A stretch of 64,000 bases of DNA from Octopus vulgaris (taxonomy: Eukaryota), in contig OX597821.1 in assembly GCA_951406725.2 (NCBI GenBank), positions 90,086,001 to 90,150,000 on the forward strand. The letters run 5' to 3'. Made by a program: the position numbers and the translations under genes. The notes beneath the pieces are model-generated. The model saw nothing but the letters and a program-made list of their open reading frames with translations. It was not told the origin of the DNA and ran no database searches. Of the stretch, positions 2,358 to 33,454 are shown one piece after another (the stretch's first letter is position 1; each line of letters starts with the position of its first letter).

Positions 2358-3259
2358 GCTGCATTATTTAATGACTACAGTGTTTCATTATGATGAGCTT
2401 TCGTTTATATAAGGCTTTAGAAATTCCCTATCGGATTGCTGCGATGTTACATTGTAGCAATATCTCAACGTTGTGATGTTCCATTGTTGTGATGCTTCGT
2501 TGTTGAGAAATTCCATTACTGCACTGCTTCTTTGCTGCTATTTATTTTGTTTTTTTTTTACAAGTTTCAGTCATTTGACTGCGGCCATGCTGGAGCACCA
2601 CCTTTAGTCGAGCAAATCGACCCCGAGACTTATTCTTTGTAAGCCCAGTACTTATTCTATCGGACTTTTTTGCCGAACCGCTAAGTGACGGGGACGTAAA
2701 CACACCAGCATCGGTTGTTAAGCAATGCTAGGGGTACAAACGCAGACACACAAACACACACACCCACATACATATAAATATATATACATATATACGACAG
2801 GCTTCTTTCAGTTTCCGCCTACCAAATCCACTCACAAGGCATTGGTCGGCCCGGGGCTATAGCAGAAGACACTTGCTCAAGATGCCACGCAGTAGAACTG
2901 AACCCGGAACCATGTAGTTGGTTAGCAAGCTACTTTATTTCAAAACATTTGCCATAAAGGCAGTACACAGATTAAGTTAGCTTTGCGGGCTGGACGAGGA
3001 CATTAATGAAGTGAATGATAATGAAAGACAGATGATAAGGATAGGAGAAGACAAAAAGCGCCCGCCGACTTTCGCTTCTCTAAAACATTGTTCTTTTTAA
3101 AGATAAACACAAAACGAGGTATTAAACCTCTTACAATTTTTCCAATTTTTGGACTTAGCAGTCCATTATTAATAAAAATGCAAAACGAGGTATTAAACCT
3201 CTTTCAATTTTCCAATTTTTGGACTTAGCAGTCCATTATTAATACTAACAGTTCAATAA

Positions 3260-3820
3260 TTACATATCGTCCTCGAAATAGCTTGTGCCCGCGCCCTCCA
3301 CCATCATACACGCCTCCCTCAGAACGTAATCAAGTTCCGAGTTCGCGTCTCCCGGGACCAAGCTATAATCTTCATTGTGCTTCTTTAGCCCAAGCGTCAC
3401 GTCGAACGCCACGGCCTCCACAGCTATCTGCGGACCCATTCGGGGTCCTGTGTGAAGGCTAAAGGAGCTCCCTTGTGGTACTCTTCCGTCATTTTTTTTT
3501 CAATTTCTCCTCCTCTATAGAAGAGGACCATATACGTTCAGTTCTTTCGTTGGCGGCACAGTTCCCGCCAACGTCTGCGGCTCATGGATATCAGCCGCCC
3601 GACCTTTCTTTCTTTTTCTCCTCCTTCTTTTGGGGGAGACCGCTGACCCAGGGGACTCCGTCACCAGACACGGGGGATCGCTATCCCGCTCCGCCACCTG
3701 AGCGTTCTTTGGCGAGCAGCCATTGTTGCTCGCCTGTCTCTTTCTTTTCGTGGAGGCAACCTCCTCCACGACTTCCACCGTCTCCCCCTCCAATGAGGGG
3801 GCGGCGGGCGCCTTTTCCCC
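3260..3820 (-). pseudogene. Frameshifted C-terminal continuation of the ORF1 protein
   Basis: Shifted frames give EGETVEVVEEVASTKRKR...SPKRRRRKRKK, then ...NDGRVPQGSSFSLHTGPRMGPQIAVEAVAFDVTLGLKKHNEDYSLVPGDANSELDYVLREACMMVEGAGTSYFEDDM* (stop 3260-3262). One shift lies in the T9 run at ~3492-3500. Confidence 0.6.
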
Positions 3821-4462
3821 TTAATGCTCCGGGGCACCACCACGGCCCCCGGGACAATTCCTCTTGATATGTCCGGGCTTCAGGCACAGGTGACACTTGG
3901 GGGGGCGTCCCTCGAGTATCACCGGGTACCTGTGCCCAGCCATTCTCAGGAAGTCCGGGAATTTCATTTCTCCCACGGCCACCGGTGTCCACAGGGTCAA
4001 AGTTGTCTTTGACCCCTCCCAGGCGACCGCGGGAGCCATTTTCACACTCAGTAGCCTGGGTCCGCTATACCCCAGGCCTCGCCGGATGGTCTTCTCGATC
4101 CATTCCGCCTCCGTGCCCGGGGGCAGCCCACAAACCCAGGCTCTTTTTACTTTTCTGCCACAATACGAGGGGAGGAACAAAATTTCCTCTCCCTCCAGTG
4201 GCTCGCTAGCAAATCTGCTAGCTTCCTCGGGGGTACCAAACAGCAACCACACCGTTGCAAATTTACTCCCCCGAGAAATAAACTTTATCGTTGGTAGGTG
4301 GTCCCCCAACTCTTTCTCTATGGTGCTCCTGTCGAAGAGGGCGATAGCTCCACGCGACCTAGAATAGGTTCGTAGGACCACCGTCCTCTTCTCAAGACTT
4401 TCAATCCACTGCTTGGGTGGGACAACCTCCCATTCCAAAGCAGTGGTTTCTTTTGTTGCCAT
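3821..4462 (-). CDS. LINE ORF1-like nucleic-acid-binding protein with CCHC zinc knuckle (N-terminal 213 aa)
   Basis: ATG-initiated, GC-rich relative to flanks. Contains VILEGRPPKCHLCLKPGHIKRNCP (CX2CX4HX4C) after an RRM-like region, as in L1/Tx1 ORF1p. Confidence 0.8.
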   Translation of the reverse strand: MATKETTALEWEVVPPKQWIESLEKRTVVLRTYSRSRGAIALFDRSTIEKELGDHLPTIKFISRGSKFATVWLLFGTPEEASRFASEPLEGEEILFLPSYCGRKVKRAWVCGLPPGTEAEWIEKTIRRGLGYSGPRLLSVKMAPAVAWEGSKTTLTLWTPVAVGEMKFPDFLRMAGHRYPVILEGRPPKCHLCLKPGHIKRNCPGGRGGAPEH

Positions 4463-5799
4463 GATTCTGAAAAAAAGTTCAACTAAAAGTTCAAAGTCCA
4501 GTAAGAAAAAAACACAATGACAGAACAGAAAGACAGAGCAGAGAAAAGGACGAAGGAAGACAGTTCAAATAATGGCAACACAGTTCTGCAACTGGTAATC
4601 CTCACGAAACAGGGTACTCCTAGTTGCAGCACACTTGGTTCTCCGTGGTAAATCCAAGCACAATTGGTTCTCCGTGGTAAATCCAAGCGAACAAATTAAT
4701 TTTTGAGGAGGGGCTATGCCTCTTCAAAATACACAATTCTCACTAAAAGGTGAGACAATAAATACGCCAACAGGCAGAACAAATACATCCGAAGCAAGTG
4801 AAGCTTATTACGCGCAGAAAAGTGTTAACACTAATTAACATTAATGCCAAAAAAGTATTAACGGCAAGCAATAAACCTCACTATGCTTCCAAAAGTATCC
4901 AAAATGTCCTACCTGTTGCCGTAAATGTTCAATAATTCACGTTAACACGTGACATTTGCCGGAGCAAAAAGCAGCACGTCAGTCTGGTAAGAAGCTACTT
5001 ACCACACAGCCACTCCTGCGCCTATGTTTCATTATCTTCTTATTCCATTACTGCAATATATCATTGATGTAATTTGTCATTGCAGTTGTGTTTTGCTGTT
5101 AGAATATTTCATTATTCTGTTACATCATTCTTGTGATGTGTCATTGCTTCGCTGTTGTGTTGCTATAATATTTCATTGTTGTGAGACTTGATCGTTGTGA
5201 TGTTTCGTCGTTGAAATATTTCATGCAGTAATACTATCTTTCTCCGACAGTTAGTTTCAGCGAAAGCTGCAGATGACCTAACGAGTAATGTGACAGGCTA
5301 CAAAATACTGACTGAAGGGATTAAAGATTGTGTTATATCCCTAGTGTAGCGTCAGTCAGTTGCGAAATCCCTTAATGCTCAAACGGTCAAGTTTGTCTCA
5401 TAGAAAATATATATCACTGGTTATATGTGTTTTGTTTACTTCTATTCCAGAGTTGAAACTCCACTGGAAATATGATAAGCCAGAGATAGAGATAGAGATA
5501 GATAGATAGCTACATAGAGAGAGATAGAGACGGAGAGAGAGAGAGAGAGAGGTAGGGAGAGGGTAGAGAGAGAACATTGCCACTCTTATTTTTTAGCTGA
5601 AGAAAGGCGCTAATCCAGCTTGACTATGATTAATACACTGGCAATGTAGGTATCCGTTACCGAATAAACCATTAATTTCGTAAGATGATAGGGTGTGTTG
5701 GGATGCATATTTAGCTGGTCTTTCTAGCATGTTGACCCATCGCTTAGAGACTCGTCGATTTGAAGAACAATAAGAGGGGGATGAATTGATTCGATATTT

Positions 5800-22727: not shown

Positions 22728-23845
22728 GTACAGATTTGGGTTGAAAAGTCTATCGGCCGACTATGAATGATTGATGCTAAAGCTGTGGGATCGTGCAAGC
22801 ATTAACTGTTAAAAAATGACTTCAAAAGTATTGAGTAGCGATTCCTCTTGAAAACAAATATTTGGTATTGTGGTGTTATTACGTACCTGCAGAAAAGTGT
22901 TAAATCTCTAAGGACATTAATACTGACATTCTTGCTATATTAGGAGATAATGGTTCCACTTTATCAAAAAAGTGGAAAAGCGGGCAGCTATATTTAAGAA
23001 CGTAAAAGAAACTCTTGAAGGTGACCAATAGTGTGCACGTACTGCAACATCCACTATCGAGCAAAATATTGATCTTGTCAGTCATACGGTTATGCATAAT
23101 ATATGGTAATCTATCCAAAATCAAAGAGCCAATGCTATTAGCATATCCCGTGAGAAACTTGGAATATGCTACTCAATGATCGTGACAAGACAAAGGTTTC
23201 TGCTCGATGGATGCCACGGTTTCTGACATAGGACCAAACGCGTACCAGGCTCATCATATCACAGGAGAATATTACATCGTTCGAAGCAGATCCATCTGAG
23301 TTCCTTGAACGTTTTCTGACACAGGATGTTGGCCAGTTACAAGGAGAAAATCCATGCCGTTGGATCACGTCCCCTCAACTGCTCCAAAGAAGGCCATGGA
23401 CGTTTTATCTGCAAGGAAAGCGACGGCCTCAGCTTTTTGGGTTGCGAAGGGTATTGTGGCTATTGACTACTTTGGGATGCCAACTTGATGAGGCAGTTAC
23501 GAAAGGTTATCAAGACCAAACACCCAGGGTTCTTGGTTCATCAGGTCAATACTTCAGCACAGAAGTCCTTAGTTTCAATGGATCCTTTGCGTGACAGGGA
23601 ATTTGAAATTGTTGATCATTGCCCCTATTTTCTTGATTTGGCTCAATCTGCTCCCCAACATGAAAAGATACTAGTCTAGGAAAAACTTTCGCAGTGATGA
23701 TGACGTCATATTTGTTGTTGATATCATTTTTGAATACGCGGATAGAAGCGTCTTCACCAACGGGGTGCAGTCTCTGCAACACCGCTGGAAGAAATGTGTG
23801 AACCGCAAGAAGCATTATGCTGAAAAGTAAACTTCATTCCTCACA
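22728..23845 (+). mobile_element. Decayed mariner transposon
   Basis: Fragments KVSARWMPRFLT (WVPHEL motif), FEADPSEFLERFLTQD, DHCPYFLDLA (YSPDL motif) and GVQSLQHRWKKCVNRKKHYAEK*. Stops and frameshifts throughout. Confidence 0.88.
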
Positions 23846-23985
23846 TCTCCTGAGAGTATCTTACCTACCTACGTACCTACCTACCTACCTACCTACCTAC
23901 CTACCTACCTACCTTCCTACTTAGCTACCTTCCTACTTTCCTACATATATACATATATAAATAGCCCTCACACAAACACACACAC

Positions 23986-33081: not shown

Positions 33082-33454
33082 GGAGGCGCAATGGCCCAGT
33101 GGTTAGGGCAGCGGACTCGCGGTCATAGGATCGCGGTTTCGATTCCCAGACCGGGCGTTTGTGAGTGTTTATTGAGCGAAAACACCTAAAACTCCATGAG
33201 GCTCGGGTGATCTCTGCTGTACTCTTTCACCACAACTTTCTCTCACTCTTACTTCCTGTTTCTGTTGTACCTGTATTTCAAAGGGCCGGCCTTGTCACTC
33301 TCTGTGTCACACTGAATATCCCCGAGAACTACGTTAAGGGTACACGTGTCTGTGGAGTGCCCAGCCATTACACGTTAATTTCCCGAGCAGGTTGTTTCGT
33401 TGATTCGGATCAACCGGAACCGTCATCGTCGTAACCGACGGAGTGCTTCCTACT
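33082..33454 (+). mobile_element. SINE family A, tail type 1
   Basis: A/B boxes. 14-bp TSD ACTACAACAAAATT at 33068-33081 and 33455-33468. Confidence 0.93.

Follow-up and report, generated by a model that had tools for sequence, protein, structure and literature searches.

Does the unit at positions 2936-4991 of a 64-kb stretch of Octopus vulgaris DNA (the whole stretch is called the window below) represent a LINE-derived element that possesses ORF1 but no ORF2, and is it a member of an amplified family? The initial annotation had described one insertion of about 2.06 kb, bounded by a target site duplication (TSD) and located in the head of a SINE, and both parts of this description are borne out. 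The unit lies on the minus strand (4991→2936) and comprises 2,056 bp, and the 9-mer at 4992-5000 next to the 5' end of the element is exactly repeated at 2927-2935 next to its 3' end, with a random occurrence of that exact 9-mer, calculated from composition, of 6e-6. Seven other SINE copies in the window align across the target site and possess the 9-mer once, at the same position (exact in four of the seven), so that excision of the insert gives back a SINE. The unit is a real insertion within the head of a tRNA-type SINE.

The host SINE starts at 5001-5025 (minus strand; head, A-box side) according to the alignment with the seven copies, and SINE contigs have loose ends grouped at 5024-5027, while its remainder (2540-2926, minus strand) was recognized by similarity to other copies in the window, four of which are 87-91% identical over about 380-400 nt, with further copies more weakly similar. 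The head is presumably of the tRNA type, an assignment made by eye from A- and B-box motifs; ARAGORN called 0 tRNAs across the 64-kb window. Together with the upstream 7-mer of the target, the first 7 nt of the element make up a perfect inverted repeat that imitates the stem of the SINE itself, and as the same 7 nt of the element resemble the SINE continuation, the duplication could alternatively be 16-17 bp long with two differences. Neither a second copy of the element nor an element with a common tail was detected within the 64-kb window.

The ORF1 of this copy, proposed to be complete, turned out to be decayed. The family ORF1 of about 400 codons (3260-4462, minus strand) is without breaks in the majority contigs, and in the copy under study a stop has arisen at 3821-3823 and the frame shifts twice, at about 3531 and about 3434/3435. 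The stop is premature, as Octopus sinensis LOC115225585 aligns through it as far as 3662 (59% over 267 aa). The stop and both frameshifts are absent from the majority contigs in all four sequencing runs examined (X3, X6, X7 and X13), where the family ORF ends at 3260-3262; the depth without the premature stop amounts to 735.8 of 735.8, 7.09 of 7.09, 233.8 of 284.8 and 34.3 of 34.3 in the four runs. As these three lesions break ORF1 relative to the family ORF, the copy at 2936-4991 is dead, and the indels at 3531, 3493 and 3434/5 sum to -3, which keeps the frame. A 626-nt contig of run X3 lacks the stop, but has two bases inserted into the G-run at 3898, and an intact ORF1 is thus present in no single listed record.

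The N-terminal half of ORF1 is predicted to consist of two RRMs followed by one CCHC zinc knuckle. Predicted RRM 1 (residues 14-103; 4154-4423, minus strand; AlphaFold model with pLDDT 89.4) matches the RRM of La with Z 8.9-9.2 and rmsd 2.7 over 82-83 aligned residues, and predicted RRM 2 (residues 103-187; 3902-4156, minus strand) matches Mip6 RRM3 with Z 7.7 and rmsd 2.6 over 75 aligned residues, while the Foldseek list of the model is filled by tandem-RRM proteins (best E 8.5e-5). The single knuckle (3851-3898, minus strand), already noticed in the initial annotation, is recovered as a zf-CCHC match at residues 189-204 with E=0.0039, too weak to pass Pfam's cut-off; the same family is matched by 19 of 44 aligned homologues. 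Two RRMs plus CCHC is the layout described for type I LINE ORF1 proteins (PMC4120745). The 52 homologues at E<=0.001 constitute a large, divergent octopod family, with all 13 named ones among 20 looked up being octopod proteins; the closest relative is a locus annotated in RefSeq, for which there are three protein accessions.

The C-terminal ~110 codons (3263-3592, minus strand) follow a low-complexity basic linker and are open in the majority contigs, with a probability of 0.003 for the frame to be open by chance. A low-complexity linker followed by a conserved C-terminal block of ~60-140 aa is common among the homologues. By eye, the segment had been compared with the C-terminal domain of homologues P0004, P0017 and P0018, but this candidate was rejected, with no HMM match in six frames, a rank of 66 among 1001 when set against shuffled sequences, and a top score from 33 pairwise comparisons that 10 of 200 shuffles attained as well. 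The ESM Atlas returned for the segment unnamed clusters of 31-36 aa only. Metagenome and viral contigs provided no contig context for the window protein or homologue P0056. ORF1-only contigs of a distant relative, the P0006 cluster, are 1.85-1.93 kb long, suggesting that half-LINEs may recur across cephalopods. In agreement with the initial annotation, no Pfam reverse transcriptase, endonuclease or other ORF2 family was found in 12 of 12 stop-masked frames covering the parts outside the 213-aa ORF, where the sole Pfam match was a below-cut-off Siva on the antisense strand. No helper LINE was found within the 64-kb window.

The 5' UTR of 529 nt (4463-4991, minus strand) is covered by contigs in four of four runs and contains a 29-bp tandem duplication at 4628-4688; a second genomic variant skips 4779-4943, and the two forms occur at equal depth in run X7 (436.8 and 447.6). 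The 3' UTR (2936-3259, minus strand) measures 324 nt and not about 880, as the family ORF ends at 3260-3262. It harbours a 70-bp tandem duplication (3110-3244), which repeats the small local hairpins that are its sole structures; the proposed structured 3' UTR was not supported by folding, which is not significantly more stable than that of shuffles (z=-1.71, a stability reached by 6 of 100 shuffles; z=+0.96 for the last 175 nt), and all nine Rfam matches are under the gathering score. The AATAAA proposed to end the element is present as a motif, but needs two A's borrowed from the target duplication: the element ends with AATA joined to target AA, an AA overlap at the 3' junction. A poly(A) tail is typical of L1-mobilised copies; the copy under study has neither such a tail nor an A-run at its 3' end.

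Whether this copy is one of many was assessed from sequencing runs. The queried stretch is present in 20 of the 24 runs listed, from nine studies and four organism codes, with at most 0.59 of its words per run; no RNA run with the stretch is on record among the 24, X13 being presumed RNA by guess. In the four runs examined, depth is present in all 30 bins and that of the main contigs climbs 3-6-fold from 5' to 3': from 437-518 over 898 and 1766 to 2027-2813 in X7, from 25 over 32-34 and 49 to 129 in X13, from 5-8 to 19.5 in X3 and from 104-255 to 492-725 in X6. Such a gradient is what 5'-truncated retrocopies would give; an ORF1 located in a 5-6-kb LINE would be reached by near-full-length copies only, and its depth would be expected to be flat. 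Two contigs, aligned over their entire length, read past the stop of the ORF and on into the 3' UTR, namely X3 record 9 (345 nt, 3105-3456, 13 other letters and 9 gaps) and X13 record 1 (282 nt, 3112-3416, 10 other letters and 23 gaps). Both differ from the studied copy, i.e. other copies join the ORF end straight to the 3' UTR. The junction is therefore not unique to the window, the family is amplified as proposed, and the bridging contigs together with the 5'→3' rise in depth support an ORF1-only, HAL1-like family. The rough depth-based estimate of full-length copies is 18-22 (X7), 8-17 (X6) and 15-24 (X3), contig depth not being a copy number, which places family size at roughly 10-25 full-length copies. 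Diverged ORF1 contigs, 9-14% different, coexist. Loose-end and joint entries are dominated by empty SINE sites among those listed (24 of 715 and 15 of 146).

Cumulatively, the locus is probably best explained as a decayed copy of a multi-copy octopus non-LTR family, likely ORF1-only, that would borrow reverse transcriptase and endonuclease from an autonomous LINE, one that likely belongs to the L1/Tx1 group. An RNA of ~2.05 kb would be transcribed from an internal 5' promoter and translated into a type I ORF1 protein of ~400 aa, which, judged from its fold and from family knowledge, would coat its own RNA. The ORF2 protein of the helper would then nick the target, with a second cut 9 bp away, and reverse transcription would be primed on the A-rich 3' end; frequent premature termination of this synthesis may leave 3' sequence in excess of 5', as in the gradient observed. 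This copy would have landed in the SINE head and decayed afterwards. O. vulgaris harbours 13 recently active L1-Tx1 families with 421 insertions (PMC13282606 Table 1), which are possible helpers of the ORF1-only element.

The observation that depth roughly doubles at about 3573 in X3 and X13 indicates that part of the 3' depth derives from sequences with other, unseen upstream parts. It would also fit an origin of the unit by internal deletion, as a rare product, from an autonomous LINE with both ORF1 and ORF2; at a junction at about 3573-3612, the linker of ORF1 would then continue in frame into the final ~110 ORF2 codons plus 3' UTR, and the autonomous element would supply most of the 3' depth. 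Compatible with such a fusion, which we nevertheless consider unlikely, are the termination of the O. sinensis homologue P0001 (281 aa) at about 3573-3612, the lack of an ORF1 homologue for the C-terminal segment and the divergence of the copy from the majority contigs, about 0.8% in the 5' 1.4 kb vs 3.8% in the 3' part. Among the 32 of 53,417 pieces listed, no record covers the element as a whole or connects across 3573-3612. Two diverged contigs, X6 record 18 and X13 record 4 (~86% alike), depart from the element at 3575 and 3665, beyond which 105 and 123 letters stay unaligned; they could stem from an ORF2-bearing relative. On the other hand, depth is present at 3606 in four of four runs, with 9.3 vs 7.09 upstream in X3, where the path is thus continuous, and linker and conserved C-terminal block are common among homologues. 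The 5' UTR and ORF1 are themselves multi-copy with a gradient, and neither a Pfam ORF2 family nor, among ten candidates and as a weak test, a longer protein matches the segment. An amplified fusion would, moreover, still be an ORF1-only family.

The pyrimidine-tract/CAG acceptor-like motif that ends 4 nt upstream of the ATG and the donor-like motif at 4915-4907 in the 5' UTR recall a spliced gene, and the RefSeq annotation of the closest relative points in the same direction. The copies might then have arisen, in the manner of processed pseudogenes, from the transcripts of a host gene that is expressed, descends from ORF1 and has been domesticated, and whose protein does not act on its own RNA. 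Purifying selection among copies is not shown by the coding differences either, with 23 non-synonymous and four synonymous changes (n=27; among 40 of 202 differences listed, with two beside indels dropped). This origin is very unlikely: the putative intron is kept in the inserted copy and in X13 record 8, the coexistence of several variants (9-14% apart in ORF1, two 5' UTR forms of equal depth) better fits successive master elements, and the homologues form a large and divergent octopod family. That assembly error or chance juxtaposition created the unit is hardly credible. Several differences from the majority contigs are indels in homopolymers, as long-read error typically produces, but the TSD is exact at a site that is single in other SINEs and the unit is covered end to end in four of four independent runs.

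An ORF1-only family of LINE descent has its closest parallel in mammalian HAL1, a non-autonomous, ORF1-only LINE derivative of several independent origins, which is TSD-bounded and presumed to depend on its own ORF1p together with an ORF2p from elsewhere (PMC5753468, PMC3627910, PMC4494074). Like HAL1, the octopus element consists of 5' UTR, ORF1 and 3' region without ORF2, has been amplified as a family and is TSD-bounded (9 bp exact, in one copy). Mammalian L1 ORF1 is, however, of type II (coiled coil-RRM-CTD, Transposase_22), and the octopus element, with two RRMs and CCHC, is therefore HAL1-like and not HAL1 proper; it also differs in its mollusc host and lack of poly(A). Type I ORF1 without ORF2 is likewise found in Drosophila, in telomeric elements of the Jockey clade (HeT-A type) that possess ORF1 only, use another family's ORF2 and make up about 40% of the telomeric families there, where ORF2 was lost repeatedly (bioRxiv 10.1101/2025.06.09.658640). 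Those elements form telomeric head-to-tail arrays, whereas the octopus copy is interstitial, TSD-bounded, in a SINE and alone within 64 kb, and in contrast to the three CCHC knuckles of Jockey ORF1s (PMC4120745) it has one. The proposed HAL1-like family is supported as a multi-copy, ORF1-only family in a cephalopod, but not as an undescribed kind of system; the ORF1-only way of life is already known, and the family would add a cephalopod case. No ORF1-only LINE from octopus was found described in the papers searched, and PMC9115989 is without any mention of HAL1, Tx1 or non-autonomous; the family may be present as an unclassified consensus in Repbase, in Dfam or in the Zenodo library that accompanies PMC13282606.

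With respect to the helper, the RRM/CCHC-type ORF1 is consistent with the Tx1 clade (PMC5203782), although the element lacks a reverse transcriptase and an ORF1 of type I is likewise known from I, Jockey, R1, Tad1, plant L1 and L2 (PMC4120745). As a lead only, the two RNA-binding domains plus CCHC resemble those of ZCCHC3-type proteins (Pfam PF23057/PF23058), with an ESM Atlas feature match of 0.91 (173 of 256 features common) to a chordate cluster of this architecture; in the Pfam scan of homologue alignment A2, neither of the two families was matched by a member of the alignment among the first 25 of 37 families listed. A possible Tx1 origin of ZCCHC3 itself is not stated in passages of PMC10351740, and no literature joining ZCCHC3 and Tx1 was found.

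The Tx1 clade includes the target-specific LINEs Tx1, Keno, Kibi, Koshi and Tx1-Mar, which move the non-autonomous SINEU, and non-autonomous partners can inherit the target preference of the helper, with preference defined as >20% of flanks being of one sequence type (PMC4494074). Like these LINEs, the octopus copy sits in another repeat; SINEs occupy about 12% of the genome, and any one exact position accounts for far less. X13 record 8, a consensus-like 613-nt contig, continues 13 nt into the same SINE-head flank as the studied copy, and the second 5' UTR variant in X13 probably does so as well. It can tentatively be speculated, at less than even chances, that an octopod ORF1-only family homes to one SINE-head site via a target-specific Tx1-like helper, thereby parasitising a LINE for the enzyme and a SINE as landing pad and possibly promoter. 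If confirmed, such targeting would allow a clean test, in a natural setting, of whether a passenger takes over the target choice of its helper in trans.

Without a reverse transcriptase, such elements are likely annotated as 'unknown' repeats or false genes in octopus, and several of the named homologues are indeed 'uncharacterized' gene models. With this family, the range of ORF1-only LINEs, represented by mammals (HAL1) and fly telomeres, would grow to include molluscs, with a type I ORF1 at ordinary interstitial sites, which would support the combination of an own RNA chaperone with a borrowed enzyme as a repeatedly evolved strategy.

The element (4991 to 2936, minus strand) is bounded by a target-site duplication (TSD), an identical 9-mer at 2927-2935 and 4992-5000, which upon alignment is found singly at the same SINE-head position in the seven other SINE copies of the window, exactly in four of the seven. 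The 34 nt to the right of the insert form the start of the host SINE, and its remainder (2540-2935) shows 87-91% identity to four other window copies. As the TSD is identical, its 9-mer is single in other SINEs and SINE parts flank the insert, the insertion and both ends are real; an artefact is exceedingly improbable, and the TSD-bounded unit of about 2.06 kb in a SINE head, proposed by the initial annotation, stands with an exact 9-bp TSD and a site single in seven other SINEs. Since the first 7 nt of the element are similar to the SINE continuation in the alignment with the SINE copies, the TSD could alternatively comprise 16-17 bp with two differences instead of 9 exact bp.

The head of the host SINE is presumably tRNA-derived, a view based on A/B-box motifs; ARAGORN reports no tRNA in the window. 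At 4985-5004, the first 7 nt of the element pair without mismatch, as an inverted repeat around a 6-nt loop, with the 7 target nt that precede the TSD core; this arrangement copies the stem of the SINE itself, shortened by one base. The same degenerate minisatellite of about 16 bp flanks the host SINE on both sides (2400-2540 and 5026-5222), which places both the SINE and its insert inside a low-complexity array. A different, second SINE-like repeat adjoins the host SINE at 1976-2357 and has about five more copies in the window, for example 33082-33450 at 91%. Broken reading frames at 23100-23900 resemble a Tc1/mariner transposase remnant; Pfam gives no match there in the three plus-strand frames. 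An octopus CORE SINE named OR2 is mentioned in PMC4758252.

The ORF1 ATG at 4462 opens 213 codons up to a stop at 3821-3823. This ORF1 had been annotated as complete, a claim contradicted by its relatives: P0001, an O. sinensis protein (LOC115225585, 281 aa) and the sole protein match among 2,051 candidates, aligns through the stop to 3662 with 59% identity, and the stop is absent from contig depth of 735.8/735.8, 7.09/7.09, 233.8/284.8 and 34.3/34.3 in the public sequencing runs X7, X3, X6 and X13, respectively. Run contigs differ from the window copy by indels at 3531, 3493 and 3434/3435 (net -3), which, combined with the window frames, extend the family ORF to about 400 codons and place its end at 3260-3262; by composition, the 186 extra codons would be open with a probability of 0.0003. 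Judging from these sequences, the stop at 3821-3823 is premature and not the gene end. The window copy is dead because the family ORF, which runs on to 3260-3262, is broken here. The long contig of X3 is free of the stop, yet has two bases inserted at 3898; no single listed record therefore has an intact ORF1. Upstream, a pyrimidine tract with CAG (4467-4477, minus strand) ends 4 nt before the ATG, about 440 nt downstream of a donor-like motif (4907-4915, minus strand); the pair possibly delimits a 5' UTR intron, or the acceptor-like tract may splice host transcripts into ORF1. No joint matching this splice is among the 15 of 146 joints listed.

Residues 1-213 yield a confident predicted fold (pLDDT 89.4, 44-sequence alignment), in which the La RRM is matched by residues 14-103 (Z 9.2, rmsd 2.7, 82 aligned) and other RRMs by residues 103-187 (Z 7.7, rmsd 2.6, 75 aligned); the top Foldseek matches are tandem-RRM proteins (E 8.5e-5, with low TM-scores of about 0.27). 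One CCHC knuckle follows the two predicted RRMs, in agreement with the zinc-knuckle ORF1 first annotated. On the predicted model, this is a type I LINE ORF1, a type which occurs in I, Jockey, R1, Tad1, plant L1 and L2 (PMC4120745), is consistent with Tx1 (PMC5203782) and, being spread over several clades, does not fix the clade. The full search retrieved 52 relatives at E<=0.001; of 20 that were checked, the 13 with a name all belong to Octopus or Argonauta, on which grounds the host is taken to be an octopus. For the last approximately 110 codons, homology searches identified no homologue. Four distant relatives of 309-384 aa (P0006, P0053-P0055) each come from a contig measuring 1,849-1,930 nt, a length that would fit a further ORF1-only unit. 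In the O. sinensis gene model P0020, the initial approximately 46 residues of the present ORF1 family (59% identity) are joined to an integrase core; the model is probably a chimera annotated across nested repeats.

The absence of ORF2 was confirmed, as none of the 12 stop-masked frames of 2936-3822 and 4462-4991 contains an RT, endonuclease or ORF2 family. The true 3' UTR comprises 324 nt with a 70-bp tandem duplication. It had been described as structured, a description that fails against shuffled sequences (z -1.71, 6/100 shuffles as stable; last 175 nt, z +0.96). The annotated AATAAA end is present, but requires two A's from the target for completion, and poly(A) is absent at the 3' end of this copy.

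The element stretch is present in 20 of 24 listed runs from nine studies and four organism codes, the best containing 0.59 of its words. In the four runs with contigs compared along the element, all 30 bins have depth, and the main contigs become deeper towards the 3' end: 437-518, 898, 1766 and 2027-2813 in X7, 25, 32-34, 49 and 129 in X13, 5-8 and 19.5 in X3, and 104-255 and 492-725 in X6. Such a gradient within 2 kb would be expected of 5'-truncated copies of a short element, while the ORF1 of a 5-6-kb LINE should show flat depth. In all four runs the last approximately 170 nt (2936-3108), where overlapping contigs were summed, are several-fold deeper than the adjoining upstream part, which may reflect either steep truncation or a tail common to a more abundant element, e.g. 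the helper. Two contigs align over their whole length from the ORF end, past its stop, to the 3' UTR: X3 record 9 (3105-3456; 13 other letters and 9 gaps versus the window copy) and X13 record 1 (3112-3416; 10 and 23). Scaling the depth of the 5' UTR to the median of the SINE-variant contigs (for X3, by a Poisson estimate that assumes shallow whole-genome data) gives roughly 18-22 (X7), 8-17 (X6) and 15-24 (X3) full-length copies, orders of magnitude since depth is not copy number; about 40-120 copies, likewise a depth-based order of magnitude, cover the ORF 3' end. Against the X3 majority contigs, the window copy has 11 differences over 1,436 nt (0.8%) of its 5' part and 18 over 479 nt (3.8%) of its 3' part. 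ORF1 contigs of 9-14% divergence exist, and a second 5' UTR form, also in X6 and X13, skips or replaces 4779-4943 (165 nt) at an X7 depth of 447.6 versus 436.8 for the main form; both point to several subfamilies.

Multi-copy cover, ORF-to-UTR bridging and the gradient favour a family over a rare deletion derivative that carries an ORF2 tail in frame, which we regard as improbable. Towards the latter, none of the 32 listed of 53,417 pieces spans the element or bridges 3573-3612, although depth is present at 3606 in all four runs; depth about doubles at approximately 3573 in X3 and X13, so that part of the 3' depth derives from sequences with an unseen upstream part; and behind two contigs of about 86% that depart from the element, one at 3575 (105 unaligned letters) and one at 3665 (123 unaligned letters), there may be an ORF2-bearing relative. 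Retrocopies of a domesticated gene are less probable still. Counting likewise against the family reading, 23 of the 27 coding differences among those listed (29 rows in the ORF, two beside indels left out, from 40 of 202 rows) are non-synonymous, thus no selection is evident.

SINEs make up 11.6% of the O. vulgaris genome (PMC13282606), hence one copy inside a SINE is little proof of targeting. X13 record 8 (613 nt, 4394-5004) is gapless at the junction, reaches 13 nt into the same flank and carries family-majority letters at six sites differing in the window copy, and an X13 contig of the alternative 5' UTR form, whose joint has no fewer than 61 letters to either side, also reaches 5004. If those letters are aligned ones, these are two further sequences at the same SINE site, one of which an allele of the same locus or a contig end from few reads could account for. 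Flanks of other copies are masked by SINE contigs, Kojima's criterion for target preference being more than 20% of flanks (PMC4494074). Homing of the family to the SINE head appears doubtful.

HAL1, a non-autonomous derivative of L1 that codes for ORF1p alone, has several origins in mammals (PMC5753468) and an ORF1 long kept in guinea pig (PMC3627910). Among the telomeric families of Drosophila, about 40% have ORF1 only (bioRxiv 10.1101/2025.06.09.658640). The octopus element works like both, but lacks the type II ORF1 and poly(A) of HAL1 as well as the telomeric location and three knuckles of HeT-A; it is HAL1-like, yet a member of neither type. The literature searched gave no octopus description of such an element, with Repbase, Dfam and the Zenodo library of PMC13282606 outside the comparison. 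The non-autonomous HAL1-like cephalopod family initially proposed is supported by multi-copy cover, bridging and gradient; its way of life is already known.

Of the mechanism, the analysis shows the TSD, the one ORF, the predicted RRM-RRM-CCHC model, cover by many copies, bridging from ORF to UTR and the gradient. An internal promoter would drive the element RNA, ORF1p would bind its own RNA, and a helper ORF2p would nick the target, whose T-rich 3' end would prime on the A-rich end of the RNA, which would explain the AA overlap and the missing tail; copies would be 5'-truncated and the window copy would have decayed after insertion. Thirteen L1-Tx1 families, with 421 insertions, have been active recently in O. 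vulgaris (PMC13282606), which makes an L1/Tx1 element the likeliest candidate helper. Cumulatively, we consider it probable that the window element, itself dead, belongs to an octopod LINE family that likely encodes ORF1 only and would be mobilised by a helper.
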